DNA of 64,000 bases from an uncultured Caldithrix sp. (GTDB lineage Bacteria; Electryoneota; AABM5-125-24; Hatepunaeales; Hatepunaeaceae). Below are positions 7,827 through 61,415 of this stretch, in pieces. Under the pieces are notes generated by a model, which saw only the letters and a program-made list of their open reading frames with translations, had not been told where the DNA came from and made no database searches. The translations under genes were made by a program, and so were the position numbers. The stretch is taken from assembly GCA_964355675.1 (NCBI GenBank), contig CAYHEC010000010.1:41160-105159 (forward strand), written 5' to 3'. Position 1 is the stretch's first letter. Each line of letters opens with the position of its first letter.

Positions 7827-7837
7827 TCGATAATCTC

Positions 7838-8851
7838 CTAATTGTTTAATTCGATAAGGCTGCCGCGCTGGCTCATAGACTCAGTGGCGGCTTCGAGAAT
7901 GCGGACAATTCGTAATCCGGAATCGGCATTGGTGATCGGTTTCTCGCCAGTTTGAATGCAGTGTAGAAAGTGTTTTGCCATCAAGCCTAATGCTTCACTG
8001 CCGTCCAGTTTAGGACACCACATATCACCAGAACGATAGCCGACTCTCATTTCATAGATATTCTTGGGATCATTGTCGAATGTAATCCCTTTATCATATA
8101 TTTTGATTTTTTCAGTTGGTTCGATGTCATCATAGAGGATCATCTTCTGACTGCCACCGATCAATGTCTGCCGCAGCTTTACGGGTGAGAGCCAATTCAC
8201 GTGGATGTGTGCGATGATCGGCTGTTCAAAAAAAAGTGTAAGATAGGCGACATTCTCCGGCTTGCCCGGGACATGCTTGATACCGGTCGCTGATACCGAA
8301 ACCGGCTTCTCTGTGAAGATAAAGTCGAGGATCGAAAGATCATGGACTGCCAGATCCCAGAGGACGTTCACATCATGTTGAAAAAGCCCAAGATTAACTC
8401 GGACAGAATCATAATAATAAATGTCGCCTAATTGACCGCTTGAAACCAGCTCCTGAATTTTCCTTACCGCGCCGGTAAAAGGAAAAGTGTGATCGACCAT
8501 GAGGATCAGATTGCGTCGAGACGCTTCTTCAATCAGTAGTTTTGCTTTCTTCGAAGAGTCTGATAGTGGTTTTTCGACCAGAACGTGCTTGCCTGCCAAG
8601 AGCGCCGCCATTGCCAGATCGAAGTGGGTAGATACAGGCGTTGCGATAGCAACCGCATCGACTTCTTTGCTGGTGAGTAACTCGTTGAAATTAGTAGTAG
8701 TTTTAATTGATGGATATCGATTTTTTACCTGAGCGAGTCGTGATTCGATCATGTCAGAAACCCAGGTGACCTGCGCTCCGGCCGACTCCATAAAATTGCG
8801 GACCAAATTAGGTCCCCAGTAACCGTAGCCGATGACTCCTATACGGAGCAT
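7838..8851 (-). CDS. Gfo/Idh/MocA-family NAD(P)-dependent sugar oxidoreductase (WbpB-like)
   Basis: N-terminal 'LRIGVIGYGYWGPN' Rossmann motif and 'EKP' motif characteristic of Gfo/Idh/MocA. Confidence 0.85.
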   Translation of the reverse strand: MLRIGVIGYGYWGPNLVRNFMESAGAQVTWVSDMIESRLAQVKNRYPSIKTTTNFNELLTSKEVDAVAIATPVSTHFDLAMAALLAGKHVLVEKPLSDSSKKAKLLIEEASRRNLILMVDHTFPFTGAVRKIQELVSSGQLGDIYYYDSVRVNLGLFQHDVNVLWDLAVHDLSILDFIFTEKPVSVSATGIKHVPGKPENVAYLTLFFEQPIIAHIHVNWLSPVKLRQTLIGGSQKMILYDDIEPTEKIKIYDKGITFDNDPKNIYEMRVGYRSGDMWCPKLDGSEALGLMAKHFLHCIQTGEKPITNADSGLRIVRILEAATESMSQRGSLIELNN

Positions 8852-8870
8852 AATTGTAATTCCTTCCTTT

Positions 8871-9266
8871 TTATGCGCGTGCGATGATAATTATTCCAGC
8901 CAATATGACGAGAATTCCGGTAGCTTTGATCATATTGAAAGACTCATGAAATAATGGTACTGCCCCGGCTGTTACCAAGACAAAAGTCATTCCAACAAGA
9001 ATCGGGTAACTGGTGCTGATCTCAGCAATGGATAAAACTTTAAACCAGACTAGAGAAGCGATTCCATAGCAAATTATCCCTAAAACGAACACAGGTTGTA
9101 AAGCAAGCCGGAGCGCCATTTCCCAGGCTCCCCCAGAGAGTGTAAAGCCGCCGACCTTCAGCAGACCGTAGCGCATGGTCAAGTTTGCGGCCACGGTCAA
9201 TAAGGCGCTTATTACAATCAGGACGAATATCTGAAGAGTCAACCTATTTCGCCCGGTTTCGAACAT
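8871..9266 (-). CDS. Small 4-TM membrane protein, EamA/SMR-like (ArnE/ArnF-like flippase subunit candidate)
   Basis: Track ORF 8871..9344 overlaps the upstream gene by 100 nt; an internal Met (9266) gives a ~130-aa hydrophobic protein; family assignment is by architecture only. Confidence 0.45.
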   Translation of the reverse strand: MFETGRNRLTLQIFVLIVISALLTVAANLTMRYGLLKVGGFTLSGGAWEMALRLALQPVFVLGIICYGIASLVWFKVLSIAEISTSYPILVGMTFVLVTAGAVPLFHESFNMIKATGILVILAGIIIIARA

Positions 9267-9777
9267 CCCCGCGCAAGCGCGCCGGGACGCCAGCGACAAC
9301 TGCATGAGCTTCGACACTTTTTGTGACGACGGCTCCTGCGCCAATCATTGCATTCTCTCCAATAGTAATGCCTGCCAGAATTACTGCTCCAGAGCCAATC
9401 GAAGCGCCTCTTTTAATTCTTGTGGGAATTACAACCCAGTCAGCCTCAGTCTGAAGTTGTCCCTCGGAAGTAGCGCGTGGAAAAAGATCGTTGATGAACA
9501 TAACTCCGTGTCCAACAAAGACATCATCTTCAATAGTTACTCCTTCGCAGACAAACGTGTGTGAGGATATCTTGCAACGGGCTCCGATAAAGGCGTTTTT
9601 TTGAATCTCGACAAAAGCACCAATTTTGGTTTCATCACCAATTTGGCATCCATATAGATTAACCAGCTCGGGTTGAAATATGCGAACGTCCTTTCCGAGT
9701 ATGACGTTGTTACTTACGGGCATAGATTGACTCCATTGGTTTATAATAAAGTGGTGCACATCTTGTGATGCGCTCAA
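9244..9777 (-). CDS. Hexapeptide-repeat (left-handed beta-helix) sugar N-acetyltransferase (WbpD/WlbB-like)
   Basis: Repeated [LIV]-G-x-x-x-x hexapeptides ('IGAGAVVTKSV', 'IGSGAVILAGITIGENAMIGAGAVV'); ~175 aa; adjacent to DegT and Gfo/Idh/MocA genes. Confidence 0.85.
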   Translation of the reverse strand: MSASQDVHHFIINQWSQSMPVSNNVILGKDVRIFQPELVNLYGCQIGDETKIGAFVEIQKNAFIGARCKISSHTFVCEGVTIEDDVFVGHGVMFINDLFPRATSEGQLQTEADWVVIPTRIKRGASIGSGAVILAGITIGENAMIGAGAVVTKSVEAHAVVAGVPARLRGDVRNRAK

Positions 9778-14791: not shown

Positions 14792-16056
14792 TTTGTAACC
14801 TTGTCATTTTGTATTGATTTATAAAATCTTTGGAAGCTATTAGGCGTGATTCTTTTTCTACTTTTACTCTTCCCAAGCCCGAACTGCTGGACACAATCAC
14901 TGTAATGTTGCTCCACTTGGTCAAGAATTTTAGAAACCGAAAATTGTGATTCGGCTTTTAACCTGCCTGCAAGTCCAAGTCTGGCGGCAAGTTCCTTATC
15001 ATTAAGAAGCTTGATAATTGCCTCGGCAATCTCATCAGGACTTTCAGGGCTAATTAAGAGACCATCCCTCCCATCATCAATTAACTCCTCTCCACTGGTG
15101 CTTCGAGAATAAATTGTTGGGCACTCACAAGTCATCGCCTCGAGCGCCGCCAGACTGAAAGCTTCTGCGAACGAGGGAAGAATTACAACTCCGGCCTGAG
15201 GCAGAACCTCTGATATCAATTGGGAGCGATCAACTGCGCCGTGCATAAAGACGTTGTTACTTTCAGTAGCGCCATATTGCCTCATCAGCATCTCACTCAT
15301 CTTTTCTCCTGATGGTAAGATGGTATCTTTACCAAAAACATGCAATTCGGCTTCGGGCGATTCAATCCTAACTTTAGCCCAGGCAATAACAAGAGATATT
15401 ATACCTTTCTTCTCGGTCATCGTCCCAAAGAAAACGACTTTCAGTGGATCTCTAACAATTGTTGACTTCTTCATAATTATTTCGGCTGGATTGTAAATGA
15501 CATGAATATAACGCTTGTCAAGTTCATAGATTTTATTGAATATTTTGGCTGTATATGCACTGACCGCAATCCTATAGTCTGCGCGATAAAAGGAAGAATA
15601 ATCCAAGAGCGCGGTGATTCGATCTAACTCTCGATTCAATATCGCAGCAAAATACGTGGAAGAGCCGTTACAACGCATAATTACCGGAATTGGTAAGTCG
15701 CCCCAAAATGCACACCAACCACCGTAATCTGGAACTTCGATGAGATCGATTTCGCCTGACAGCGCCCAATCACAAATTTGATGGAATAATTTCCAACGCA
15801 TTCCGATCCAACTAAATCGCATCGAAGGAGCACGTAACCGAAATACTTGTACGCCCTGATCGTTTTCCGAATCAGGAGCTGGGTAAGACTTTGGATAGAC
15901 TCCCACGACACGAACCTGATGGCCACGTCGTGCAAGTTCTCTGGCGAAAAGCTGGACCATCGTGCCTATACCACCATGTGGACCAGGAGGGTATTCGGAA
16001 CAGATAAAACAAATTTTCATTATTTTATTGTTACTCAAAAGACTGATCGATGACAT
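14788..16056 (-). CDS. GT4-family glycosyltransferase
   Basis: 'MKICFICSEYPPGPHGGIGT' N-terminus and C-terminal 'EAFSLAALEAMTCECPTIYS' motif; true start probably the internal Met. Confidence 0.8.
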   Translation of the reverse strand: MSSISLLSNNKIMKICFICSEYPPGPHGGIGTMVQLFARELARRGHQVRVVGVYPKSYPAPDSENDQGVQVFRLRAPSMRFSWIGMRWKLFHQICDWALSGEIDLIEVPDYGGWCAFWGDLPIPVIMRCNGSSTYFAAILNRELDRITALLDYSSFYRADYRIAVSAYTAKIFNKIYELDKRYIHVIYNPAEIIMKKSTIVRDPLKVVFFGTMTEKKGIISLVIAWAKVRIESPEAELHVFGKDTILPSGEKMSEMLMRQYGATESNNVFMHGAVDRSQLISEVLPQAGVVILPSFAEAFSLAALEAMTCECPTIYSRSTSGEELIDDGRDGLLISPESPDEIAEAIIKLLNDKELAARLGLAGRLKAESQFSVSKILDQVEQHYSDCVQQFGLGKSKSRKRITPNSFQRFYKSIQNDKVTK

Positions 16057-17422
16057 TGACTATCCGCTTGCCTGCTTCTCCATCAACTTGCCCACAAATT
16101 AAATCTCGAACGGCAACTCGTTCTTGACGTCTCTTTCCAGGCAGTAATATTGCTTCCTCAACAAATTCGATCAACTCAGAAATGTCATTGGCAGTTGGAG
16201 CGGCTCCGGAAGCATTTATAGGTTCATAATGATGACAATGACAAATATTGTTATAGAAATCATGCTCCTTGGACTCCCTATCAACGTGAAAACCAATATT
16301 TACAAAGGGACGATCCAAAACAGCACAATCGAGCGCTATTGAGGAAGTCATGCTGAATACAACGGTAGCATACCTGATACTATTCGTAAGTAAAGCCATT
16401 TCATATAATCCAGGTGAAGCCCAGATGTTTTGGAGAGATTGACTACTTGCCCAAGGTAAGGACAACGTTACTTCTGGATAGGTCTGAATCAGATTTTGCC
16501 ATCTTGCGAAATTGTCAAACGGGTGGAGACGTAATACCCACTTTATGTCTTTACCATTTTGTATTTTACGAGTATTTTCGATAATAAAGGCTAAATTCTC
16601 TGATTCACGTGGTGTTAAGCTTTGATGATTGGCACAATACAGGAAATATTCCTGGTTTGAGACTAAACCTAATTCACTAAGTGTGTGTTGCAAATCCCAT
16701 TGAAATTTTGGTAAAATATGATAATCAAATTGAGGTGTTCCGGTTATCGTTATTTTACTCTTTGATATATTATAGAATTCAATTAGCTCTTTGGTCATCA
16801 ATTCACTCCATGTCATGTAATGATCAAATTTCGACCAAGGTCGATAACCTGCACTGGTCAGATTGTCAAAAGATAAAATGTGGGTAACAGTTGGTATGCC
16901 GATTTTTTGAAGGGCGCGGAAAGTCAGCCATTCGGATATTGTGCGAAAATTTGTTGAGAATGCAAGTGATAGCTTCAATTTTTCAAGATCCCTAAGCATA
17001 CTTTTAGAAATTAAGGTATTAAATATCTTCTCTTCGAAATTCTTTATTAGTAAATAACCTTTTTCAAAATCAGCGATAGGCGACGCAAGTTTATAATAAT
17101 GTTGACTTAATCTATCATGCAATGATTTGGTATTTAACTGAAATTTATTTTTGACCAAACTGTCGCCAGTATTGATTTGATGGCGATTAAAAAATGATTT
17201 AGTAAGGGAATCCAAAGCTAATCTATGCAGTCTTTTTGACGGATAATCCTGCAATAACCATATCTCAGCTTGTTTCCCCATTGAATTTCGAAAGCTCTCC
17301 TCTGCTTGTGGCGGGATCCCCCAGATAACTTCATATTTTGATTTCAATGAATCAGCAATGCCAGAATTGATAACATTTCTATAAGAAAACGAACTCGGAA
17401 TACTTACCAATATTCTATTCAA
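16031..17422 (-). CDS. Hypothetical GT-B-like transferase (TagF/KpsS/polysialyltransferase-like architecture), candidate nonulosonic-acid transferase
   Basis: 463 aa; C-terminal 'LRLHPFDN ... ALLTNSIRYATVVFSMTSSIALDCAVLDRPFVNIGF' resembles the HP / donor-binding region of TagF- and KpsS-like enzymes; weak call. Confidence 0.3.
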   Translation of the reverse strand: MNRILVSIPSSFSYRNVINSGIADSLKSKYEVIWGIPPQAEESFRNSMGKQAEIWLLQDYPSKRLHRLALDSLTKSFFNRHQINTGDSLVKNKFQLNTKSLHDRLSQHYYKLASPIADFEKGYLLIKNFEEKIFNTLISKSMLRDLEKLKLSLAFSTNFRTISEWLTFRALQKIGIPTVTHILSFDNLTSAGYRPWSKFDHYMTWSELMTKELIEFYNISKSKITITGTPQFDYHILPKFQWDLQHTLSELGLVSNQEYFLYCANHQSLTPRESENLAFIIENTRKIQNGKDIKWVLRLHPFDNFARWQNLIQTYPEVTLSLPWASSQSLQNIWASPGLYEMALLTNSIRYATVVFSMTSSIALDCAVLDRPFVNIGFHVDRESKEHDFYNNICHCHHYEPINASGAAPTANDISELIEFVEEAILLPGKRRQERVAVRDLICGQVDGEAGKRIVNVIDQSFE

Positions 17423-17437
17423 GAAACGATCTCATTA

Positions 17438-19279
17438 TCAAAATTGTTTGTTTATAAACTGTCTGTGCCACAGCTCGACATTGATCCATTGCCAAATAAA
17501 AAAGGCATTGCTGTTATCACCTTTGCAATAACCATCAAATAGTCGCTTCACTTCAGAAACTTTAAAGTACCCTCTGTTTGCAAATTCTGAACTATTAATC
17601 AATTCGATAACCCAAGATCGCAATGGACCTAAAAACCACTCACGCTGTGGAGAGACTACTGCCCGTTTGCCCGACCAACAGAGTTGCCGAGGCAATTTTT
17701 CAGTCATCGTCCTGCGCAAAAGATATTTACCTAAACCATTCTTGATTCGTAAATGACCTGGTAAGCGAAACAAATACTCTACGATTCGATGATCTAAATA
17801 GGGTTCGCGCAATTCGCGGCTAAATGCCATCGATAACCGATCATTCATGCGCAAAACTCTTGGCAATTTTGTCCAACGCAGGTCACGAAATAATATTCTT
17901 CTTAACGAATCAGGGTATGAGCTATCGAAATTTGGCGCCACCATGCCGTGATCGGCTATATCATTACTTACTCCTTCTGGACGAAGGTGGTTTGTACCGT
18001 CTTGATACACATTTATCCAGCCACCATTGCTGAGGATGGATTTTGCCTGAGATAATTCAGTTTTCCAACTTTTACCCAAGCCACGAAGATTGGCATGAAG
18101 CTCCGCCCATATACGATTATGTATTAAATCTGCAAGATAATAGGGTCTCATATAATTATAGCCTGCCAGCATTTCATCGACTCCCTGTCCTTCGAGCAGT
18201 ACCGTAACTCCCATCTCTTTTGCTAATTTATGTTGATAATGATAGGCTATCGTCGAAACCCCACCGAACGGAGCTTCCTGATGCCACATAACCTCATCGG
18301 CAAGCTTTATCACATCGACTGGGGCGAGCCTTTGGTAATTCCTTTTCCAATTTGAATGAGTTATAATACTATCGGCAAATCCCTTTTCGTCATATTGTGG
18401 ATCATCATATCCGGCTGTAAATGTTTGTATTTCGCCATCTTTATCAATAATATCATCGACCGTAACAAGCAGACTTGCCGAATCCAGTCCTCCACTTAGA
18501 TTAACACCTACCGGGACATCACTTCGCAGGCGCAAACGAACCGAATCATTCAATAACCTACGAAATTCTTTCACGACCTCGTCCTCAGGAGCATTTACAA
18601 TATCTAAGGTTAAATCAGCCAAGTCCCAATATCGACAAATAGTGATTTCGCCATCGTTAACTGTCAGCGTACATCCGGGAGGGAGTACCTTTATCCCAGC
18701 GAAAAAGGTGTCGTCTGAATGATCAAAATAGCCATGTACAAGGTAATCTGCCCAAATTCGATGGTTTGGTTCGGCTTTGAAACCAGAGGCCAGAATTGCC
18801 TTGATTTCTGAGGCAAATAGGAACAAATTACTGTTAACTACATAGTGAAATGGCTTGATTCCAAGACGATCACGCGCGCAAAACAAGCAGTTTTTACGCG
18901 GGTCCCAAATTGCAAATGCAAACATGCCGATAAAGTGGTCAACACATTTTTCACCCCATCGATCGTAAGCGGCTAATACTACTTCTGTATCAGTTGCGCT
19001 TCGATAGGGGTAATCAAATAGTTCTTGTTTTAATTCAATATAATTATATATTTCACCATTCAGTACGATCCATCTTCCACTACGCGAATCTTCCATTGGT
19101 TGACTTCCAGAGGTCGAAAGATCGATGATGCTGAGTCGATTGTGACCCAAGCCAACCCGTCCGTCGTCAGAAATCCATGTTCCGTCTGAATCAGGACCGC
19201 GATGATGTTGAACTTTGACCATCGCCAACAAGTCCGGGAGCCGCCAACCCTTGCCGATTATCCCTGAGATGCCACACAT
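17438..19279 (-). CDS. Asparagine synthetase B-like glutamine amidotransferase (WbpS-like sugar amidotransferase)
   Basis: N-terminal nucleophile 'MCGISG' (class II GATase) plus PP-loop 'LSGGLDSAS'; 613 aa. Confidence 0.9.
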   Translation of the reverse strand: MCGISGIIGKGWRLPDLLAMVKVQHHRGPDSDGTWISDDGRVGLGHNRLSIIDLSTSGSQPMEDSRSGRWIVLNGEIYNYIELKQELFDYPYRSATDTEVVLAAYDRWGEKCVDHFIGMFAFAIWDPRKNCLFCARDRLGIKPFHYVVNSNLFLFASEIKAILASGFKAEPNHRIWADYLVHGYFDHSDDTFFAGIKVLPPGCTLTVNDGEITICRYWDLADLTLDIVNAPEDEVVKEFRRLLNDSVRLRLRSDVPVGVNLSGGLDSASLLVTVDDIIDKDGEIQTFTAGYDDPQYDEKGFADSIITHSNWKRNYQRLAPVDVIKLADEVMWHQEAPFGGVSTIAYHYQHKLAKEMGVTVLLEGQGVDEMLAGYNYMRPYYLADLIHNRIWAELHANLRGLGKSWKTELSQAKSILSNGGWINVYQDGTNHLRPEGVSNDIADHGMVAPNFDSSYPDSLRRILFRDLRWTKLPRVLRMNDRLSMAFSRELREPYLDHRIVEYLFRLPGHLRIKNGLGKYLLRRTMTEKLPRQLCWSGKRAVVSPQREWFLGPLRSWVIELINSSEFANRGYFKVSEVKRLFDGYCKGDNSNAFFIWQWINVELWHRQFINKQF

Positions 19280-19998
19280 TATTTATCTATTCCCAATTTT
19301 TTACGCATTAGGACTTCAACCATTGCCATATCGTTTTCGTCATCGACGCCTACAGAGCGTTCGGGAGGCATTATATAAGGAATAATCTTGTGACCCCAGA
19401 TTGAATTTTCTTCCAGTAGAACATCGCGCCGCGTAAGATAAATTGCACCATTCCGCATATACGCTGGGGGAGAGTAATCTTGTCTTCTTGTGCCCTCTTT
19501 TTCCTCAATACAAAATGGCTGAAGGTATCCTTCTTCGATCTTCTTCATTAACATAGGGTGAACCGAAAATACCTGGACTACGCTAATCACAGAGTCGCCA
19601 TTACCTTGTACACCAAGTTTTATGGCTTCCTCAATATCTTGCACTGTTCGGAAAGGTTCTGTTGGCTGTAAAAGGCATATCCAGTCAAGTCTTTGATTAT
19701 CACGCTGTTCAATGAAATGGGCTGAATGCTGGAGAACGGGTATCATGGGAACTTTATCATGGGACAGCTCTGGTGGCCTAATAAATGGAACAGTTGCCCC
19801 TGCTTCCCTCGATATTTGTGCTATCTCCTGATCATCAGTAGAAACAACAATATCGCAGAAAAGGTGCTTTGCGGCAAGAGCGGTTTCTATGGTATAAACG
19901 ATCATCGGTTTACCGCATACCTCGCGCACATTCTTCCGGTGAACGCCTTTTGATCCACCTCGTGCAGGGATAACTGCCAATATTCTTGGGTCTGCCAT
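19279..19998 (-). CDS. Acylneuraminate cytidylyltransferase family (CMP-nonulosonic acid synthetase, NeuA/LegF/PseF-like)
   Basis: 'ILAVIPARGGSKGVHRKN' signature; canonical ATG at 19998 overlapping the upstream stop (TAATG). Confidence 0.85.
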   Translation of the reverse strand: MADPRILAVIPARGGSKGVHRKNVREVCGKPMIVYTIETALAAKHLFCDIVVSTDDQEIAQISREAGATVPFIRPPELSHDKVPMIPVLQHSAHFIEQRDNQRLDWICLLQPTEPFRTVQDIEEAIKLGVQGNGDSVISVVQVFSVHPMLMKKIEEGYLQPFCIEEKEGTRRQDYSPPAYMRNGAIYLTRRDVLLEENSIWGHKIIPYIMPPERSVGVDDENDMAMVEVLMRKKLGIDK

Positions 19999-21149
19999 TA
20001 GTAGGTAAGTTTTTTGTCGATTTTTAATTCGATTGTAGATAGAATATCAGCGATTCGGTCTCCGGCACAGCCATCGCCGTATAGACTATCTGATGGGTAA
20101 TGTCCATGTGCAAGCTGGTGGGCAATTGCTTCTGTAATCTCTTGATGATCGTATCCGACATCCAACACATTCGAAGCGCGATCCCGACCACCCTGCCGAC
20201 TACCAATATTTACCACAGGAACTCCCAAGAAGGAAGATTCCCGTATTCCAACGCTTGAATTGCCAATTAGACAACGAGCTTGAGTGAGTAGATTCAGAAA
20301 ATCTTCAGGTGGTAAATTCTTATAAAAATATATATTACGAATATCATTTTGCTCGCGGAATAATCTCATCCCTTTAGAGATATGGTCAGAACCTGCGTCA
20401 ACATTGGGCCAGAACCAGAAAGTCGGCAGGTCAAGAGTTTTGACAGCCTTAAGGGTTTCGGTAATTTGAAAGAGCCCCTCATCGACTTCGGTCGTCACCG
20501 GATGTTGCATTACAATCAAATATCCGTTTTCAAGATTGAATGTGTGCCCAACTCCGCCATATTTGACCAAAGGGTTAAAATGCGAAATTGGATTCTTCTT
20601 GACTCGATCAGCCAAATCTATGGATGGACAACCGGTAATGAAAATCGTAGTAGGATCTTCCCCCATTTTTTCCACACGAACTTTGGCTTGAGAGTTAGAA
20701 ACGAAGTGAAAATTTGAGAGTTTGGTTACAGCATGCCGGACTTTCTCATCGATAGAGCCTGTTACTTCCCCGCCTTGAACGTGAGCAACGGTGATATTCA
20801 AATAGGATGCGGCTATAGCCGTTGCGATTGTCTCGTATCGATCTGCAACAGTTACAACAATATCAGGCTTGAGATTATCGAAAATCGTAGCAAGCTCAAC
20901 AACGCCTAATCCGGTTGATTTGGCGGCGGTGACAAGATTCTCACCCTCCAAAACCATATAGACAACGGCGTCGGGTGTAAAGCCATCACTCCGAATAACA
21001 TCGATGACAGGTCCATAACGCTCCAGGAGCGCCGAGGCGCCTACCACCAATTGTAATTTTAAATCCGGATGCAACTGCACAGCCTCCAGAACAGTCTTAA
21101 TACGAGAATAGCTTGGGCGCGCGGTTACAACGATACAGATATTTCGGAT
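19998..21149 (-). CDS. UDP-N-acetylglucosamine 2-epimerase, NeuC/WecB family; 5' end extended beyond the track ORF, candidate ATC start
   Basis: 'HVQGGEVTGSIDEKVRHAVTKLS' core motif; in-frame upstream codons encode 'RNICIVVTARPSYSRIKTVLEAV', which is the conserved NeuC/WecB N-terminus, with no ATG/GTG/TTG between the in-frame TAA TAA (21162-21167) and the GTG at 21080. Confidence 0.8.
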   Translation of the reverse strand: MRNICIVVTARPSYSRIKTVLEAVQLHPDLKLQLVVGASALLERYGPVIDVIRSDGFTPDAVVYMVLEGENLVTAAKSTGLGVVELATIFDNLKPDIVVTVADRYETIATAIAASYLNITVAHVQGGEVTGSIDEKVRHAVTKLSNFHFVSNSQAKVRVEKMGEDPTTIFITGCPSIDLADRVKKNPISHFNPLVKYGGVGHTFNLENGYLIVMQHPVTTEVDEGLFQITETLKAVKTLDLPTFWFWPNVDAGSDHISKGMRLFREQNDIRNIYFYKNLPPEDFLNLLTQARCLIGNSSVGIRESSFLGVPVVNIGSRQGGRDRASNVLDVGYDHQEITEAIAHQLAHGHYPSDSLYGDGCAGDRIADILSTIELKIDKKLTY

Positions 21150-22111
21150 AGTAAAATACCTTTATTAAAATTTGATGTTGAAATAAAAGACATTAGCTTT
21201 TCAGCCATAAATCGCTCTGTCGCATGCATCGACTGCCATGTTGCGCCACCGAGATGAGGTGTGATTAACAAATTCTCATTGGTTCTTGCATAATCGATCA
21301 GTATGTTCGAAGTATCAGTATTTGTTCTTTCCTCTGACAATACATCGAGTGCGGCGCCGGCTAAATGACCAGATTTCAGATGCTCAAGAAGTGCCGGATC
21401 ATCAATAATTGCTCCCCGCGAAGTATTTATCAATAATGATCCTTTGGGTAGCCAATCGAATTCTTCGGAACCGACCATCCCGGATGTATCTGCATTTAAA
21501 GGGACATGGATCGAAAGGACATCACAATTCTGAAAAAGCTCCTTCATGGTGTTATAGCGAACAAGACTGGGATGATTAAAATCCTCAATATCAAAATATC
21601 CAACCGACATCTTGAAAGCTTGCCCGAAACTTGCGACTTGTTTCCCCACTCGACCAAGACCAAGGATGCCAAGCCGTTTTCCAGCTAATTCAATTCCTTT
21701 AAAACGATCGCGATCCCACTGACCTTCACAAACAGAATTGAAGGCTTGAGGTATATTTCTCGCAAGTGAAAGTAATAGCGCCCAGGTATGCTCGGCAGTG
21801 GCGCGAATTGAAGAAAGAAACTCGTACTCACCACGAAGACTTAATACGGTAATCCCCAATTGCTTAGCAGAGTCCATGTCGATATGATCGACTCCGGTCG
21901 TTGGTGTGACTATCACTTTTAGTCTATGCCCTGAAGACATAAGTTCTTTATCAATATTGTGTTTCAGTCGTGTAATTAACACTTCGATAGACGGGATTTC
22001 GGTCAATAGCTCTTGTCTGGTCAGCTCTCCTTCACAATATTCACCCAACTTCTTATAAATATTCTGCGCTTCTGATGAGTAGTCAGACGGTTCAAGATTC
22101 CATATTCGCAC
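21125..22111 (-). CDS. D-isomer-specific 2-hydroxyacid dehydrogenase family (NAD-binding)
   Basis: 'GKRLGILGLGRVGKQVA' Rossmann motif and 'NTSRGAIID' / 'AALDV' catalytic region typical of D-2-hydroxyacid dehydrogenases. Confidence 0.8.
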   Translation of the reverse strand: MRIWNLEPSDYSSEAQNIYKKLGEYCEGELTRQELLTEIPSIEVLITRLKHNIDKELMSSGHRLKVIVTPTTGVDHIDMDSAKQLGITVLSLRGEYEFLSSIRATAEHTWALLLSLARNIPQAFNSVCEGQWDRDRFKGIELAGKRLGILGLGRVGKQVASFGQAFKMSVGYFDIEDFNHPSLVRYNTMKELFQNCDVLSIHVPLNADTSGMVGSEEFDWLPKGSLLINTSRGAIIDDPALLEHLKSGHLAGAALDVLSEERTNTDTSNILIDYARTNENLLITPHLGGATWQSMHATERFMAEKLMSFISTSNFNKGILLSEISVSL

Positions 22112-23118
22112 TATGCGAAGTCCTCTTCAGTTACCGGTCTGTTTTCGAGAACATCGTTCTTCAGTCTGCGTCCAATAATGGTTTCCAATTTGTCGAATCG
22201 CAAGCCTGCTCCGGCTTTCTTTAGAGTAACATCGTTCCTGGCTAAAACGCTCCCGGCTTTAAGATCATGAGAAGCAACCAGACTTTTTGCGAATATACTC
22301 CGAGTGGTTGAAAGCTCTTCGGCTATGGTATTTTTGGTCACGGGATTATTCTGGACCGTTTCGATAAACCTCACACCTGCCACCAAGTCTTTCAATTCCG
22401 AGGTAGTTATCGATGAGGAAACATCGGGGCCAAACATTTCTCGAGATAGGGTCACATGCACTTCAATTAGATCGACGCCGAGCATCGCAGAAGCAATCCC
22501 GGGATAGATTGTACCGCTGTGGTCGGAAAGCCCAACTTTACAACCGTAACGATTTTTATACAGCGGTATCAAATTCAATCCGACCTTTTCGGGAGGCGTA
22601 GGATACATCGATGTGCATTGTAATAAAGTAAGTTCATTCCCAAGAGTCTTGATGTACGATACAATTTCGTCTAATTCGGAAAGAGAACTCATTCCAGTAG
22701 AAATCCAAATTGGTAAAGCGGTGTCTGCCATCAATTGAAGTAGTGGCTTATTGGTGACTTCACCTGAGCCAACTTTCCATGCGGCGACACCGATTTTCGA
22801 GAGCATCTCGGCGGCTTCCATGGAAAAGGGAGAGCTTAAGAACAGCAAATTTTGTTCAACAGCATGTGCATTTAGCCCAAGCCACTGCTCCTGAGTGAAT
22901 TCCATTCGGCGCCAGTAATCATATCTGGTAGAGTCCTGATAACTGAATTTGACCCGCCATGGTTCGCTGGGAGTGCTTTCTGCCGCGGCAATATGCGTTT
23001 GAAACTTTATGCCATCAGCCCCGGTCCGTGCGACCGCATCGATGAAGGCATGGGCTTGGCCAAGACTGCCATCGTGGGTTTGGGAAACTTCGGCGATGAT
23101 CAGGATACTGTTTTTCAT
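22111..23118 (-). CDS. N-acetylneuraminate synthase family (NeuB/LegI/PseI-like nonulosonic acid synthase) with C-terminal SAF domain
   Basis: 'ILIIAEVSQTHDGSL' TIM-barrel start, 'GLSDHSG' metal-binding motif, C-terminal SAF/antifreeze-like domain. Confidence 0.9.
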   Translation of the reverse strand: MKNSILIIAEVSQTHDGSLGQAHAFIDAVARTGADGIKFQTHIAAAESTPSEPWRVKFSYQDSTRYDYWRRMEFTQEQWLGLNAHAVEQNLLFLSSPFSMEAAEMLSKIGVAAWKVGSGEVTNKPLLQLMADTALPIWISTGMSSLSELDEIVSYIKTLGNELTLLQCTSMYPTPPEKVGLNLIPLYKNRYGCKVGLSDHSGTIYPGIASAMLGVDLIEVHVTLSREMFGPDVSSSITTSELKDLVAGVRFIETVQNNPVTKNTIAEELSTTRSIFAKSLVASHDLKAGSVLARNDVTLKKAGAGLRFDKLETIIGRRLKNDVLENRPVTEEDFA

Positions 23119-23124
23119 CGAATA

Positions 23125-24180
23125 TTAATTTAAGCTATCTCTCAAATAACTTTCGAGTGTTTTCTCTATGTCCGGTCGATGCCGTATATTATAGTAATGG
23201 CGCATTTTCAATATCTTCAACTGAAGCGTACTCAAACTACTCAGGATCCGGTAGTGGGTCACAATATCGGCTGAAGCGCCGCTTTGTGCCATGTGGTTTA
23301 TTGCCAATTCAGCAGTCTGGCGAGAGTTCGCTAACAATTCCCATAATGCGATTTTTGCCCAGAACTGTTGACGTTCCCATGAATACTCGGGATTGAGGAT
23401 TTTCCTGATTAGCCACCTGAGCCTTGCTTTCCCTCTTACTTCCTTTATATTCGATACCCATTCCCCAGTTATCGGCTCTTTCTTATAATAGTCAGGAAAG
23501 TACTTTGCCCTTACTCGATTTCCTTCAATCTGTGTAGAGGTCATACTATTTGCTGATAAAGAAACAAGATATAAAGGCTCAGCTATTTCATAACCATTTG
23601 CAACTTGCAATATTCTTATCCAGAGCGGTACATCACCCATAGTAAAATCTGTATCATAACCACCGACGCTCAAAGCTACTTTCCGGTCGAAAATCACTGT
23701 AGCATCACCAAATCGGCGTCTTTTGAAAAATTGTCCAGTTAACATTTCGACACTAAGTTTTCTGGATTTAAATCTATTCTGAAAGACCTCTTCAAAAATA
23801 TGATTAAAAGGGGTTAAATACATAAAGCCAGTACCGACCATTTTATATTCGGGATTTTCTTTTAAGAATGACATTTGTTTTTCGATTCGGAGTGGGAAAC
23901 TAATATCATCAGCATCCATTCGTGCAATCCACTCCGTTGTAGCATTATCCAAACCCCATTGTAAAGCTCCCTGAAATCCAACGGGACCCAATTCAAATAC
24001 TTTTACACGGTGATCTGTTAAGAAAGTGCGGGCAATTTCGGCAGTGTTATCCGATGATCCGTTCTCTAAAACCCATAATTCAAAATCAGAGAAGGTCTGA
24101 TTAAGAATACTCCGAATCGCTGGGCGTATCGTGGATTCGGCATTATGGGCAGGAAGGAAAACTGTTAATGCAGAATTAAT
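23125..24180 (-). CDS. GT2-family glycosyltransferase; conserved N-terminus lies upstream of the track ORF, candidate ATT start
   Basis: Track ORF starts at TTG 23991 inside the domain ('RMDADD' follows); in-frame upstream codons encode 'LTVFLPAHNAESTIRPAIRSILNQTFSDFELWVLENGSSDNTAEI' (GT2 N-terminal motif) back to TAA at 24241-24243, with no ATG/GTG/TTG. Confidence 0.65.
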   Translation of the reverse strand: MNSALTVFLPAHNAESTIRPAIRSILNQTFSDFELWVLENGSSDNTAEIARTFLTDHRVKVFELGPVGFQGALQWGLDNATTEWIARMDADDISFPLRIEKQMSFLKENPEYKMVGTGFMYLTPFNHIFEEVFQNRFKSRKLSVEMLTGQFFKRRRFGDATVIFDRKVALSVGGYDTDFTMGDVPLWIRILQVANGYEIAEPLYLVSLSANSMTSTQIEGNRVRAKYFPDYYKKEPITGEWVSNIKEVRGKARLRWLIRKILNPEYSWERQQFWAKIALWELLANSRQTAELAINHMAQSGASADIVTHYRILSSLSTLQLKILKMRHYYNIRHRPDIEKTLESYLRDSLN

Positions 24181-24250
24181 TTCTAATTCTCTGACCGAAC
24201 GAGGTTCAAATTGAATATTCGAAGAACTGAATATGAAGCCTTAAAATCAA

Positions 24251-25389: not shown

Positions 25390-26409
25390 TCATCTCCCAC
25401 GGTAAATGTTTTCGCTTTTTCCGTGTAGCTCCAAATCAAGAATCGCGATATCAGCATCAACCATCAGTTTGACCAGTTGATCAAATCGTATTTTTGGTTC
25501 CCAACCAAAATCTCGCTTTGCTTTCGACGCATCGCCGCATAGCAAATCAACTTCTGTCGGGCGAAAATAATTTGAGTCCACTTCCACGTAGTCCTTCCAA
25601 TCTAAATCGACATGGGAAAATGCCGCGTCCAAGAACTCCCTGATCGTGTGGGTTTCTCCGGTTGCACATATATAGTCGCCCGGATTATCTTGTTGCAGCA
25701 TCATCCACATCGCTTCGACATACTCAGGCGTATAACCCCAATCCCTTTTGGCGTCGAGATTGCCTAAATATAATTTTTTATCAAGTCCAGCCATGATTCG
25801 AGCCAGAGCTCGAGTGATTTTTCGCGTTACAAACGTTGGACCTCGTCGAGGAGACTCGTGGTTGAATAAAATGCCATTGCTGGCAAATATTCCGTATGCT
25901 TCGCGGTAATTCACCGTCATCCAATAGGCGTAAACTTTGGCAATTCCGTAGGGACTGCGTGGATAAAATGGGGTCGTTTCCTTCTGAGGAGTCTCGACCA
26001 CCTTACCAAACATCTCCGAGCTTGAGGCTTGATAAAAACGACATTTTAGGTTTGTCTCACGAATTGCTTCGAGTAGTCGGATAGTTCCCAGAGCGGTGAT
26101 ATCTCCAGTGTATTCAGGGATTTCAAAGCTAACCTTGACATGGCTTTGAGCGCCTAAATGATAGATTTCATCGGGTGAAAAGCGATACAAAAGTTTGATG
26201 AGACTGGTGGAATCGCTTAAATCAGCATAGTGGAGGAATAACTTGACGCCATTGATATGCGGGTCCCGGTAGAGATGATCGATGCGCTGAGTATTGAAGG
26301 TGCTGGCTCGACGGATGATTCCATGAACTTCATATCCCTTGTTGAGGAGGAACTCCGCGAGGTACGATCCGTCCTGTCCAGTGATTCCGGTGATTAAGGC
26401 TGTTTTCAT
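25390..26409 (-). CDS. gmd: GDP-mannose 4,6-dehydratase
   Basis: '[34 protein letters not shown]' is the classic Gmd N-terminus; 339 aa. Confidence 0.95.
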
Positions 26410-27611: not shown

Positions 27612-29699
27612 TTATCTAAATAGTAGCGAATCTATTTTTTGCGGTATCCTCCGGATACGCTTATATAATTTTCCATGTCTAATAGAACCATATGATAAAC
27701 CAAACCCTATATATTTCTGCGCAGGCACGCCGATCTTGTTGGATATTTTAGCATAATTTAAAATTGCCGTCGCGTGTTCTGCTAAACCTACCGACCACTT
27801 TCCGCCATCCCATTTAAGGTCTGTGCGGCAACCTTTTTGTTCAAATGCATTTGCCAGCTTGGGTTCGCGATTAATGTAGTACGAGATAACATATTCGAAA
27901 CTTTCCGGGTTCAGCCAAATATTGGGAGGTACATTACTCAAATCATTTAGTTCCTTGGCTAATTTCTCAGTAATTTGCCAATCTGATATAAACCGATAAT
28001 AACTCCTGCCTTTATTGTTATCGAGAATGTCGCGCTTTTTCTGCAAAGGTATTGTGCTTAAAATCGACTCATTTACAGTCGCAACCAATTGCAAGGCGGA
28101 AATAATTGATGTCTTAGTTAATTCCTCCAGTATGCGGTATTTGTTTTCGTCCATCGTAAACCATTCTTGCCTCAAGTTATCCACGAGAGCCGACGAATGT
28201 TCATGTTTATTTTCTACCGAAATACCAGACCGTTCAGCAAGTGAATAAGTGTATTTAAGACTATTTAACATACAAAGAAGGACTCGAATCCGGACGGGAC
28301 TACTATACGCAATCCAAATTATGTCATGCGGTATTTTTACTAATAAGTAATCTACCAACATACCGAAAAAGGCGCCTTGCGAAACTGACGACGATGAAAC
28401 ATCGCCTAAGTCTATTCCAGAAAGAAGCCTATAATTAAATATAGGAAATAGCTTTGGGAGTATTCCAATAGCACCTTCCGTGCAGACGTATGGTGGATGC
28501 GTCATGAGTAATCGAACCCATTGAGGAAAGTTTTCAGGCTTGTAATTTTGCCAGGTCAATTTCACATCGTCTGGGTACACAATCAAATAATCAAGGTCGG
28601 AAATGCCAGGTGCACCAACTTGTCCAATTTGATATATTGCAATCGGTTTTGGGGCAAGTGAGTTCCAGAATTTCGTTACAAGTTCAGTCGTTTCTTGATA
28701 ACGTTGGTCTTGAATTTGAAGAGGTAGATCAGTTACCGGGCGAGAGAAAACACGTGGACCAGGTTCCTTGGGAGCGACATCTCGTATTTTTGTTTGCATG
28801 CTATGGAGTAATGCAAGTACACGTCGCGGGAAATCTTCTCCTAAAACATTTTGAACATCGATGACTTGCTTACTATTTCGAGAATTCCGTCTTGCAATCT
28901 TTTGTAATAACGATGGACGATGAATTTGGAGCGCAAACCAAACTAATATCCGTGATGGCTTATGTCGCGGCCCAAGAGTTGCCCTTAAATTTGTCGCTAA
29001 TACTATTGGTTCCCATTCTTCTTTCGTGAAGTATTTTTCTGCGATAGGGAATGTGTCCCTTTTGTATCTAAATTCTCCTGTCATACGTTGGAGAAATAAG
29101 GCTGGTAAAATCATCAGATTCCCCAAGCAGTGTTCCACATCGTAATAATCTCTCATCATAAATGGTTTCGAACTCCAAGCATTGAAGTAACCAGAAAACA
29201 TTACAAGCATGGAATCTGTAATTTCGTTGGAAGGTACGACCATCACTTCGATTGGATCATTGGATTCAAAAAGATCAACGCCATAATTAAAGAGTATCAG
29301 TGGAAATTTCGCTTCTGGATAAGAGGACAACTCGCTTTGCATTAGATAATAGGGTTCATGATGCATAAAAGGATCGAAGGCATAAGTTAAGGCAAGAATC
29401 TCGCTACGAAGCTTATTATACTTACTCTGCATTCGCGTATCTGTTAAAGTCGAATCCTTCACAATAAACGTCAAATCTAAGTCGCTAAATCCTTCAACAT
29501 CATCAAGTGTCGCGACACTTCCATGAATAATCGCCCGTAAAAACAGATCTTTGTTTTGGTTTGCCAATTTATGCAACTTCCATACGGGCCAATATTTTGA
29601 CTGGCTGCCACCTCTGTCAAGCCATGATTGATAATTTGTGCCAGATGGAACTTGATGGATCATAATCTGTTTATCAGACTTATTCAACTTGCTTGCCAT
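27612..29699 (-). CDS. Uncharacterised protein with two Pol-beta-like nucleotidyltransferase-fold motifs
   Basis: 695 aa; 'HGSVATLDDVEGFSDLDLTFIV' and 'IGQVGAPGISDLDYLIVYPDD' both fit the G[GS]-x(9-13)-D-h-D-h nucleotidyltransferase signature; no closer family recognised. Confidence 0.4.
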   Translation of the reverse strand: MASKLNKSDKQIMIHQVPSGTNYQSWLDRGGSQSKYWPVWKLHKLANQNKDLFLRAIIHGSVATLDDVEGFSDLDLTFIVKDSTLTDTRMQSKYNKLRSEILALTYAFDPFMHHEPYYLMQSELSSYPEAKFPLILFNYGVDLFESNDPIEVMVVPSNEITDSMLVMFSGYFNAWSSKPFMMRDYYDVEHCLGNLMILPALFLQRMTGEFRYKRDTFPIAEKYFTKEEWEPIVLATNLRATLGPRHKPSRILVWFALQIHRPSLLQKIARRNSRNSKQVIDVQNVLGEDFPRRVLALLHSMQTKIRDVAPKEPGPRVFSRPVTDLPLQIQDQRYQETTELVTKFWNSLAPKPIAIYQIGQVGAPGISDLDYLIVYPDDVKLTWQNYKPENFPQWVRLLMTHPPYVCTEGAIGILPKLFPIFNYRLLSGIDLGDVSSSSVSQGAFFGMLVDYLLVKIPHDIIWIAYSSPVRIRVLLCMLNSLKYTYSLAERSGISVENKHEHSSALVDNLRQEWFTMDENKYRILEELTKTSIISALQLVATVNESILSTIPLQKKRDILDNNKGRSYYRFISDWQITEKLAKELNDLSNVPPNIWLNPESFEYVISYYINREPKLANAFEQKGCRTDLKWDGGKWSVGLAEHATAILNYAKISNKIGVPAQKYIGFGLSYGSIRHGKLYKRIRRIPQKIDSLLFR

Positions 29700-30969: not shown

Positions 30970-32124
30970 TTAGAAGAAATTATCCATAATGCCTTCAAGT
31001 ATGGTAAGCCTCCCATCGTTGACGGACTGATTGTTGCCTATATAGAAGGCGTTGGTGTGTAGGAAATCTGCGTTTTTAAATCCTTCGGCGTTATAGTGTT
31101 TCTTCAGGAAAGGTTGGCGCAGGAGGTTTCCGGCAACGAGTGGGCGGGACTCGATGCCAGCATCGGCAATAATCTTCTGAAACCTTTTCTTTTGTTCACA
31201 GTCCTTAAACAGAAATTGAAGAACAAAAGAGGATATCCCTTCGGATTCCGCTACAATAAGGGCGTCGCTATATTTCTTACATATCTCAACAAAACGGCTA
31301 TAGTTGCGATTCCTTATTTCAATGAATTGGTCTAATTTGTCAAGTTGTGTTAGACCCAAAACCGCGTGGAGTTCAGTGTTTCGAACATTGAACCCGTCGG
31401 TAAGAAATAGAAATTGAAAATCAATGTACGGATACTTAGTTTTGATGTCGTCATGGTATTCAATCGGCAGTTCGCGAGCCAGTCCATGCGACCTTTTCAA
31501 CAACAACAACCGGTATAATTCTTCGTTGTTGGTGCAGACCATGCCGCCTTCGACTGTAGTCATGTGGTGACCCCAGTAAAAGCTGAAGGTGCTGCCTATT
31601 CCGAAGTTCCCAACCTTTACCTTGTCAATAGTGGCTCCATTTGCTTCACAGCAATCCTCCATGATCAAAATGCCACGATCGCCGATGATTTTCTTGATGC
31701 GGGAAATGTTAGCTGGAAACCCGATCAGGTGAGTAATAAATATCGCTTTTGTTCTGTCGGTGATGCATTTCTGAAGCTGATCGTAATCAAAGGAGAAATC
31801 CTGAAGATTGACGTCAACAAAGACAGGTTTCAACCCGCTCTGCATTACCGGGGTAACATTGGTTGTCCATGTAACGGCGGGTACGACAACTTCATCGCCA
31901 TCATTCAAGCCATACATCTCCTTCAAAGCATTGATTAATACCAGATTGGCTGAACTGCCCGAATTGACAAACACGCTATACTTACATCCCTGCCATTTGG
32001 AATAGCGGTTCTCAAATTCTTTTACTTTTGAAAATTGAGTAAATCTGGTTGTTTCCCTGATAAAGGAGACAAGAGTGCTAAGGTCATCTTGACTCAATAT
32101 ATCTTCTTGTAGTTTCCAGAGCAA
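30970..32124 (-). CDS. DegT-family PLP/PMP-dependent sugar 3-dehydratase (ColD / E1-like)
   Basis: DegT-family motifs 'VNSGSSANLVL', 'GDEVVVPAVTWTTN'; the usual Schiff-base Lys is replaced by His in 'GSTFSFYWGHHMTTVEGG', the hallmark of ColD/E1 3-dehydratases. Confidence 0.75.
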   Translation of the reverse strand: MLWKLQEDILSQDDLSTLVSFIRETTRFTQFSKVKEFENRYSKWQGCKYSVFVNSGSSANLVLINALKEMYGLNDGDEVVVPAVTWTTNVTPVMQSGLKPVFVDVNLQDFSFDYDQLQKCITDRTKAIFITHLIGFPANISRIKKIIGDRGILIMEDCCEANGATIDKVKVGNFGIGSTFSFYWGHHMTTVEGGMVCTNNEELYRLLLLKRSHGLARELPIEYHDDIKTKYPYIDFQFLFLTDGFNVRNTELHAVLGLTQLDKLDQFIEIRNRNYSRFVEICKKYSDALIVAESEGISSFVLQFLFKDCEQKKRFQKIIADAGIESRPLVAGNLLRQPFLKKHYNAEGFKNADFLHTNAFYIGNNQSVNDGRLTILEGIMDNFF

Positions 32125-32186
32125 TTTATAAATTCCCCATGGTTGTTTTGCCCGATTTGATCAGTATTCCAGTTTGAAAGTCCATT

Positions 32187-60752: not shown

Positions 60753-61415
60753 TCAGCCATCGCTCATATGCCACCCCTTCTCCATGGCCTTCACAGCCTT
60801 CCCAGGGCAACCAACAACAGTCGTGTTAGGCTCCACTGGATTGATTATGGTGCTACCAGCCCCAATGCGCGACCACTCGCCGATAGGGAGTTTCTCGAGT
60901 ATATTTGCTCCTGTTCCGATGAATGCTCCCTCATTGATACTCACATTTCCCGAAATGTGACATCCAGGTGAGACGGTAACAAAATCCGCGATTGTTGAAT
61001 CGTGCCCGATGGTACAGTCCAAATTGACATGAACATGCTTCCCGATCGTTATGTTCGTCGTGAGAATGCACCCGGCAGTGATGATACTTCCCTCACCAAT
61101 TACCACGCGACGAGTCACTATCGCCCGCGGATGCACGATGGAGCAGTACTTTGCCCCAAGAGTCTCCAACCGCTTGATCATACGATATCTGAGGTCAGGT
61201 GTACCTATCGCGCACGTCAACTCAACCCTGTTGACGTTTTTGGCGATCCACCTTGTATCTCCGAGGATTGGCAGTCCATTTATCAGTGTTCCCGGCGTTC
61301 CATATTGTCCATCAACTATGAACCCGATGCACTCCACCGAATTATCTCTCTCTTGGATGGCTTCGACAACATCAAGGACCTCGCGCGCGAAGCCGCCAGC
61401 GCCAATGATTGCAAT
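60753..61415 (-). CDS. NeuD/PglD-family sugar N-acyltransferase (hexapeptide repeat); N-terminus upstream of track ORF, candidate ATT start
   Basis: Hexapeptide repeats 'IGEGSIITAGCIL', 'IGTGANILEKLPIGEWSRIGAGSTI'; in-frame upstream codons encode 'KQIAIIGAGGFAREVLDVVEAIQ' (NeuD/PglD N-terminal motif) with no ATG/GTG/TTG back to TAG at 61515-61517. Confidence 0.7.
   Translation of the reverse strand: MAIIGAGGFAREVLDVVEAIQERDNSVECIGFIVDGQYGTPGTLINGLPILGDTRWIAKNVNRVELTCAIGTPDLRYRMIKRLETLGAKYCSIVHPRAIVTRRVVIGEGSIITAGCILTTNITIGKHVHVNLDCTIGHDSTIADFVTVSPGCHISGNVSINEGAFIGTGANILEKLPIGEWSRIGAGSTIINPVEPNTTVVGCPGKAVKAMEKGWHMSDG

Follow-up and report, generated by a model that had tools for sequence, protein, structure and literature searches.

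A D-2-hydroxyacid dehydrogenase as a recurrent accessory member of nonulosonic acid gene cassettes in bacteria and archaea

Here, we report that a D-2-hydroxyacid dehydrogenase (DH) encoded among the nonulosonic acid genes of an uncultured Caldithrix sp. is an accessory gene of one type of cassette and no local insertion; the cassette amounts to a known pathway plus an uncharacterized, widespread accessory enzyme family. The genes lie in a stretch of 64,000 nucleotides (assembly GCA_964355675.1, contig CAYHEC010000010.1, positions 41,160 to 105,159 of the forward strand), hereafter the window, whose own positions are used throughout. From 23118 to 19279 its minus strand encodes, in this order, a NeuB-like synthase, the DH, a NeuC/GNE-like epimerase, and a NeuA-like CMP-synthetase; an earlier note made from the sequence alone had named these four genes at these positions, and family matches in Pfam and NCBIfam bear it out. 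We propose that the segment may be a co-translated cassette for a cytidine monophosphate (CMP)-activated, nine-carbon sugar of the N-acetylneuraminic acid (Neu5Ac) type that would form part of the surrounding polysaccharide, and that the DH may tailor this sugar in an NAD-dependent step, a reading to which we give an even chance as a whole and a much smaller one for any particular position on the sugar.

The dehydrogenase is a conserved, optional member of one cassette type

We scanned genomes, one per species, with a DH alignment and obtained 80 loci, 79 of them with a relative of at least 35% identity; as in every locus scan described here, these are the best 80 loci, and the loci come mostly from metagenome-assembled genomes. 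The 79 relatives show 35 to 58% identity and occur in more than 10 phyla of bacteria as well as in several lineages of archaea; cultured carriers include Flavobacterium anhuiense, Formosa sp. L2A11, and Halovenus salina. Bacterial loci were found in Chloroflexota, Alpha- and Gammaproteobacteria, Desulfobacterota, Gemmatimonadota, Acidobacteriota, Bacteroidota, Verrucomicrobiota, Cyanobacteria, Actinomycetota, Spirochaetota, Myxococcota, and several lineages of the candidate phyla radiation, and archaeal ones in Halobacteria, Methanoregulaceae, Asgard, and DPANN lineages. Across this range the gene keeps the same company: a NeuA homolog lies within 6 kb of the DH at 69 of the 79 loci and within 100 nt at 56 (median gap, 33 nt), NeuB lies within 6 kb at 66 and NeuC at 61, and NeuA, NeuB, and NeuC occur together at 56. 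The earlier note had described the DH as inserted between NeuB and NeuC, which is misleading, as the DH recurs as an optional fourth gene of a widespread cassette, most commonly in the order NeuB-NeuC-NeuA-DH (39 of the 79 loci), with the window's order NeuB-DH-NeuC-NeuA at 7. Clustering of the open reading frames (ORFs) at the 80 loci returned TagF-like genes (34 loci) and AsnB genes (about 19 to 20 loci) as the other recurrent neighbors of the DH, and no further family.

A second, independent sample consisted of metagenome contigs seeded with NeuB, of which those with enough flanking sequence were counted as informative, and in which a NeuB at least 39% identical to that of the window defined membership of its clade. 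Within the window's clade, 14 of 27 informative loci had the DH, versus 0 of 14 loci with other NeuB types (Fisher p = 0.0011).

Fusion proteins also link the DH to NeuA. We searched 1.84 billion representative proteins with a DH profile and examined the top 150 matches, among which three fusions were found: NeuA-DH (P0302), DH-NeuA (P0390), and DH-methyltransferase (P0299). A follow-up search with P0302 recovered at least 12 distinct clusters of NeuA-DH fusions, 552 to 603 aa in length and 55 to 100% identical to one another, that originate from JGI, ENA, NCBI, and Logan sources, a spread that argues against an assembly artifact; P0397 is another of these natural fusions. In the literature, the one lead was a remark in a genome comparison on a NeuB of Leptospira santarosai that carries a phosphoglycerate dehydrogenase domain (PMC4758666). 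We set aside a 969-aa protein joining NeuC, NeuA, and DH (P0395; locus L168, 5414-9340), whose contig has NeuB broken into a pair of ORFs and a NeuC domain that is cut short; this triple fusion is probably the artifact of an assembly indel.

These patterns bear on the most conservative explanation of the window, namely, an ordinary Neu5Ac operon in which the DH is a passenger, a serA-like housekeeping gene. The three canonical enzymes are indeed present and cassettes of the same clade work without the DH, but synteny kept over many bacterial phyla and archaea effectively excludes a passenger gene, and the confinement of the DH to one NeuB clade (14/27 versus 0/14), its repeated fusions to NeuA, and its stop/start overlap with NeuB speak against it as well, so that we give this explanation almost no chance. 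The earlier note was right to place the DH outside the canonical Neu5Ac pathway and to take it as probably linked to the module, a link that is strongly supported by multi-phylum synteny, specificity for one NeuB clade, and the NeuA-DH fusions.

The dehydrogenase resembles 3-phosphoglycerate dehydrogenases

By sequence, the DH (328 aa; 21125..22111, minus strand) is a member of the D-2-hydroxyacid dehydrogenase family, of its PGDH-like subfamily, with matches to PF02826 (5e-49) and PF00389 and with its catalytic residues intact. The cofactor and catalytic features comprise the motif GLGRVG, D174, and the triad R232/E261/H286; among 76 relatives, R232, H286, and the GxGxxG motif are kept in 76, E261 in 75, and D174 in 74, and this near-universal retention of the Arg-Glu-His triad and the Asp points to an active enzyme of the NAD type.

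The nearest relatives of the DH, by sequence and by predicted fold, are 3-phosphoglycerate dehydrogenases. An AlphaFold2 model (mean predicted local distance difference test score [pLDDT], 84) found its best folds in the Protein Data Bank among PHGDH/PGDH structures (template modeling score, 0.69 to 0.84; about 31% identity). R48 and R134 align with Arg54 and Arg135' of PHGDH, which in the human enzyme are ligands of the distal carboxylate of malate, and are kept in 57/76 and 71/76 relatives, respectively. The DH thus shares with SerA/PHGDH, and especially with the short Pyrococcus horikoshii enzyme 1WWK, a two-domain fold, the triad, the Asp of the NAD motif, and the equivalents of Arg54 and Arg135. 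Unlike SerA/PHGDH, it has no ACT or ASB domain, carries His for Asn in the motif GxDH(I/V)D, and stands in the context of nonulosonic acid synthesis rather than serine synthesis; besides this His, the subfamily is marked by SLRGE and a 5-residue insertion that replaces the N-T-P loop (inserted loop, residues 93-100). The top NCBIfam match, the PGDH model TIGR01327, was scored at 229 bits against a cut-off of 454, and NF008759 at 195 bits against a cut-off of 404. Together with the presence of a nonulosonic acid cassette at 72 of the 79 DH loci, these scores argue that the DH is not of the SerA type. We found no published work on the DH in nonulosonic acid clusters in the open-access full-text literature, the published classification of 2-hydroxyacid dehydrogenases makes no mention of glycan contexts, and a plasmid collection held no close relative of the DH, the top match there being serA at 34% identity.

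The family membership of the DH lends itself to what we regard as the main rival to our proposal. The enzyme could act on a small 2-keto or 2-hydroxy acid, with 3-phosphoglycerate/3-phosphohydroxypyruvate, hydroxypyruvate/D-glycerate, and 2-oxoglutarate/D-2-hydroxyglutarate as candidates, and so supply a hydroxy-acid substituent or acceptor for a nonulosonic acid glycan. Such a role would involve the normal chemistry of the family and would suit both the kinship with 3-phosphoglycerate dehydrogenases and the retention of the two Arg equivalents. It sits poorly with the cassette itself, in that no acid-attaching ligase or transferase is conserved with the DH and the recurrent fusion partner is a cytidylyltransferase and no acyl- or phosphotransferase, and poorly with the protein, in view of its shortfall against the PGDH equivalog cut-off and the insertion in place of the N-T-P loop. 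We hold a small-acid substrate to be unlikely.

The base sugar is probably of the Neu5Ac type

The NeuB-like synthase (335 aa; 22111..23118, minus strand) consists of a PF03102 domain (1.8e-61, residues 26-257) and a SAF domain (PF08666; 4e-09, residues 278-334). It did not reach the NCBIfam cut-off of the NeuB_NnaB equivalog TIGR03569 (287 bits; cut-off, 400) or that of PseI (TIGR03586; 213 bits; cut-off, 340), and it is about 32% identical to the NeuB of Neisseria meningitidis and about 29% identical to the PseI 8H2C. In a neighbor-joining tree of 127 sequences with two experimentally solved references, it falls within a clade of 86 sequences (clade X; 96% bootstrap) that leaves PseI 8H2C outside and whose placement relative to N. 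meningitidis NeuB is supported at only 35 to 45%. A firm place within the standard Neu5Ac clade, which would have spoken against the reading of the earlier note, was not found: the protein misses the NeuB and PseI cut-offs and lies in a separate clade, and by its sequence it is something other than a standard Neu5Ac synthase.

The protein keeps the metal-binding His pair and the catalytic Glu of the neisserial enzyme. Alignment to N. meningitidis NeuB equates H200 and H221 with the metal-binding His215 and His236, and E120 with E134, and all three residues are invariant in our NeuB alignment (A2). At the position of R314 the window has K301, a Lys that is invariant throughout the clade. Arg314 of N. 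meningitidis NeuB has been reported as essential, and a Glu at the E120/E134 position is the bacterial type, linked to the use of unphosphorylated ManNAc (PMC8208679). The cassette therefore resembles the neu operon of Escherichia coli K1 and SiaA/SiaC/SiaB of N. meningitidis in combining the same three enzyme families in one operon, with the metal His pair and the equivalent of E134 retained in NeuB; unlike the Neu5Ac pathway, it has a NeuB of low identity, in a clade of its own and with Lys for Arg314, and it adds the DH and an AsnB-like amidotransferase.

NeuC and NeuA also point to the Neu5Ac type. The hydrolyzing UDP-N-acetylglucosamine (UDP-GlcNAc) 2-epimerase NeuC (minus strand; canonical ORF 21080..19998, 360 aa; 19998..21149 when the conserved N-terminus is included) passed TIGR03568 (NeuC_NnaA) as its 360-aa ORF with 346 bits against a cut-off of 236, though short at its N-terminus. 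Among solved structures, it is closest to the human GNE epimerase domain (4ZHT; 229 bits, residues 7-380), ahead of LegG (5ZLR; 189 bits). An N-terminal strand and loop of the type seen in the vertebrate GNE epimerase domain is encoded in frame (RVCVATCNRADYSKL in GNE, NICIVVTARPSYSRIK in the window), albeit with no canonical start codon (see below); unlike GNE, the cassette has neither an N-acetylmannosamine (ManNAc) kinase domain nor a kinase gene. The NeuA-like CMP-nonulosonic acid synthetase (239 aa; 19279..19998, minus strand; PF02348, CTP_transf_3) reached no NCBIfam equivalog cut-off, its top match being PseF (163 bits; cut-off, 206), and its best solved relative is the CMP-Neu5Ac synthetase 6IFD (1.8e-34), with 1EYR at 5.5e-21. 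No protein of the window reached the NCBIfam cut-offs for LegB, LegC, PseB, or PseC, and genes of the legionaminic or pseudaminic acid type were not conserved around the cassette in the ORF clustering of the 80 DH loci. Because NeuC is nearest to GNE and NeuA to CMP-Neu5Ac synthetases, because the His and Glu residues of NeuB are kept, and because legionaminic and pseudaminic acid enzymes are absent, we take the base sugar to be of the Neu5Ac type, and the sequences point to a pathway from UDP-GlcNAc through ManNAc and a Neu5Ac-type acid to the CMP-sugar.

A product of the legionaminic or pseudaminic acid type would instead be suggested by some of the annotations: many close relatives of the NeuB are annotated as N,N'-diacetyllegionaminate synthase by JGI, PseF heads the NCBIfam matches of NeuA, and several genes of the window are dehydratase-like or encode aminotransferases of the DegT type. 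Those candidates, however, miss the LegB, LegC, PseB, and PseC cut-offs and match Gmd, RfbH/ColD-like, and Fcl-like proteins instead, the 80 loci show no conserved genes of this kind near the cassette, and NeuC is nearer to human GNE than to LegG. In addition, a CBS-nucleotidyltransferase gene, which we take to be PtmE-like and a mark of clusters of the legionaminic acid type, was present in 9 DH-free NeuB-seeded loci only, in all nine of which the NeuB is less than 39% identical to that of the window. On the missed cut-offs and the GNE-like NeuC we rejected this type of product, which we consider highly improbable.

A proposed redox tailoring step and the points that weigh against it

In the Neu5Ac-type pathway that we propose, the NeuC/GNE-like epimerase would convert UDP-GlcNAc to ManNAc, the NeuB-like synthase would condense ManNAc with phosphoenolpyruvate, and NeuA would add CMP. 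The DH would be a dedicated optional fourth enzyme that works beside the cytidylyltransferase and, with NAD as its cofactor, tailors the sugar by a redox reaction; its substrate would be the CMP-sugar or the free acid that is about to be activated, and its product a dehydro (keto) or epimerized sialic acid-like sugar. The AsnB-like amidotransferase may modify this sugar further, a TagF-like enzyme would transfer it, and the polysaccharide would be exported via an ABC transporter. The earlier note had suggested a modified nonulosonic acid; the linkage of the DH to the module on which this drew is strongly supported, while the modified product itself is a prediction from sequence, and so is what each enzyme acts on, at which point and in which direction the redox step runs, and what finally results. 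Loci of the legionaminic acid type are without the DH, which hints at the hydroxylated C7-C9 side chain as its target, though this absence may reflect shared ancestry instead.

Redox tailoring of a 3-deoxy-2-ulosonic acid after the synthase and before the cytidylyltransferase has a precedent in the 8-amino-Kdo (Kdo8N) pathway of Shewanella, in which KdnB oxidizes Kdo before CMP activation and KdnA transaminates. Unlike the DH, a 2-hydroxyacid dehydrogenase, KdnB is a metal-dependent alcohol dehydrogenase and works with a partner aminotransferase; no partner is conserved with the DH.

Several observations weigh against a sugar-tailoring DH. So far as we know, the characterized 2-hydroxyacid dehydrogenases all use 2-hydroxy or 2-keto acids or close analogs as substrates, and CMP-Neu5Ac has no oxidizable C-H beside its carboxylate. 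The retained PHGDH-type Arg pair would suit 3-phosphoglycerate or another small acid no less than a sugar. Roughly one in two cassettes in the window's NeuB clade has no DH, so that the enzyme is not needed for the basic sugar, and among the cassettes without it no recurring replacement enzyme was found. Likewise, no aminotransferase, second reductase, ligase, or special transferase co-occurred exclusively with the DH, and TagF-like, AsnB-like, and methyltransferase genes were present both with and without it. Finally, NeuC has no canonical start codon in the window (see below), and the pathway might be impaired in this genome.

The conflict with family chemistry would disappear if the DH reduced the open-chain sugar that leaves NeuB at its C2 keto group, giving a 3-deoxy-nononic acid for some non-glycosidic use. 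The open-chain nonulosonic acid is the sole 2-keto acid product of the pathway, and the reported fusion of NeuB to a phosphoglycerate dehydrogenase domain in L. santarosai would fit as well. A reduced acid could not take CMP at the anomeric center, yet it is with NeuA that the DH is most tightly associated, and the conserved Asp174 is of the NAD type rather than the NADPH type. Biosynthetic reductases more often use NADPH, and we know of no natural product of the 3-deoxy-nononic acid kind. A reduction at C2 strikes us as improbable.

Tailoring of the sugar by the DH, by comparison, would have consequences beyond this genome. Nonulosonic acids shape how microbes are recognized by hosts, phages, and neighbors, and their environmental diversity is poorly explained at the gene level; the DH offers a concrete, cloneable candidate for a sialic acid modification not yet known. 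We consider it conceivable, if rather doubtful, that the DH represents an unrecognized and widespread branch of sialic acid biosynthesis among environmental bacteria and archaea, in which a PGDH-derived enzyme, often fused to NeuA, acts on a nine-carbon sugar and yields a new keto or epimeric sialic acid or performs an oxidation by the activation step of a kind not known for CMP-sugars. If our proposal were true, the chemistry of the 2-hydroxyacid dehydrogenase family would be extended, and the label "D-3-phosphoglycerate dehydrogenase" that these proteins often bear would misname a large subfamily.

Gene junctions and downstream genes of the module

Stop and start codons overlap at the junctions NeuB/DH (TAGTG), NeuC/NeuA (TAATG), and NeuA/AsnB (TAATG). 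The first of these points to translational coupling of NeuB and the DH, and the AsnB-like gene is translationally coupled to NeuA. Of the overlaps that the earlier note ascribed to the module, those of NeuB/DH and NeuC/NeuA were recovered; DH and NeuC do not overlap, their canonical ORFs being 45 nt apart. The DNA of the module is identical in four independent assemblies.

The unit runs past 19279 into a gene for an AsnB-like glutamine amidotransferase (613 aa; 17438..19279, minus strand) with GATase_7 and Asn_synthase domains, a TIGR01536 score of 415 bits, and the N-terminus MCGISG, and then into a gene for a TagF/TagB-like GT-B protein (463 aa; 16031..17422, minus strand) with weak matches to PF04464 (3e-11), NF046086 (BFO_1060-family glycosyltransferase), and TIGR04396, which on these similarities is a candidate nonulosonic acid transferase. 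In the pseudaminic acid cluster of Tannerella forsythia, an AsnB homolog has been predicted to make a 5-acetamidino group (PMC6120980). The window likewise has an AsnB-type amidotransferase gene beside nonulosonic acid genes; unlike the window, the T. forsythia cluster is of the pseudaminic acid type and without a 2-hydroxyacid dehydrogenase, and the AsnB function is a predicted one there.

NeuC has no canonical start codon in the window

Forty NeuC homologs begin with MKRKICVVVTARPSYSRIK, and the N-terminus of the window's NeuC aligns with it. This N-terminal NICIVVTARPSYSRIK is encoded in frame upstream of the GTG at 21080, over the 3' end of the DH gene, and the window encodes TIRNICIVVTARPSYSRIK in the NeuC frame directly after TAATAA. 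There is no ATG, GTG, or TTG in that frame before the GTG at 21080, so that an ATC at 21149 is the sole candidate, giving MRNICIVV; with a start at the GTG, the first strand and its loop are lost. The reading frame of NeuC is -1 relative to that of the DH. A programmed -1 frameshift from DH into NeuC was considered and rejected, for want of a slippery heptamer and because of the TAATAA that precedes NeuC in its own frame. Residues 317-328 of the DH (21125-21160; at least 12 codons) extend past the end of its homologs, were modeled with a pLDDT below 50, and are encoded by DNA that overlaps the NeuC N-terminus, which suggests that the stop of the DH and the start of NeuC were rearranged together.

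Two further genes of the window share this anomaly. A GT2 gene (23991..23125, minus strand) has an 83-codon start-less extension, to 24240, that holds the N-terminal motif of GT2 and an ATT at 24180 as a candidate start, and a NeuD/PglD-like acetyltransferase gene (61337..60753, minus strand) has a 58-codon start-less extension, to 61511, with a candidate ATT at 61415. All three regions (21080-21161, 23991-24240, and 61337-61511) are on the minus strand and encode conserved N-terminal sequence in frame, and none of them offers an ATG, GTG, or TTG between the preceding stop codon and the first canonical start. Either initiation at ATT and ATC is commoner here than gene callers assume, or NeuC, the GT2 protein, and the acetyltransferase have lost their starts.

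Related modules and genomic surroundings

Other loci of the window's NeuB clade carry different genes in the cassette. One has a GNAT acetyltransferase and a polysaccharide deacetylase between NeuC and NeuA (L087, 10267-12302), and another has an S-adenosylmethionine-dependent methyltransferase in the same place (L086, 10183-11085). The clade thus appears to accommodate a variety of tailoring enzymes.

A smaller group of DH modules without NeuC (L039, 3655-12594; L042, L062, L054, L059, and L079) combines a NeuB-like protein that has no SAF domain with NeuA and DH and adds a ManC-like enzyme, a HAD phosphatase, and a CBS-nucleotide-sugar dehydrogenase; those of Chloroflexi have an extra bifunctional sulfate adenylyltransferase/adenosine phosphosulfate kinase, a possible sign that the ulosonic acid is sulfated. 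We considered labeling these loci as modules for 2-keto-3-deoxynononic acid (Kdn) and did not establish this, the NeuB-like protein being without SAF and the adjacent HAD protein resembling a phosphoglycolate phosphatase.

The module of the window lies inside a surface polysaccharide gene cluster of about 35 kb with many glycosyltransferases of the GT1, GT2, GT4, and GT9 families, a Wzy_C-type protein, and a Wzm/Wzt ABC exporter, along with Gmd, RfbH/ColD-like, and Fcl-like proteins, a split transketolase, and a WbpB/E/D-like trio. Gmd, the RfbH/ColD-like pyridoxal phosphate enzyme, and the Fcl-like reductase (25390-26409, 30970-33137, and 34113-35827) are the enzyme types of a route to a GDP-3,6-dideoxyhexose (colitose-like). 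Next to their genes, the N- and C-terminal subunits of the transketolase are encoded separately; this enzyme might introduce a two-carbon branch into a sugar. At 6729-9777 (minus strand), consecutive genes for a DegT aminotransferase, a Gfo/Idh/MocA oxidoreductase, and a hexapeptide acetyltransferase resemble the WbpE/WbpB/WbpD set for 2,3-diacetamido sugars; the best match of the oxidoreductase was UDP-GlcNAc 3-dehydrogenase, under the cut-off. A 695-aa ORF in the glycan cluster (27612-29699, minus strand) had no Pfam or NCBIfam match and is kept in sister assemblies. On the plus strand, at 40419-48908, the window encodes a 2829-aa protein with LVIVD repeats, many Ig-like domains, and a C-terminal Por_Secre_tail, the sorting domain of type IX secretion, which suggests that the DNA is from a member of the FCB group; the G+C fraction of this region is 0.49 to 0.52, versus about 0.40 to 0.44 in the glycan cluster.

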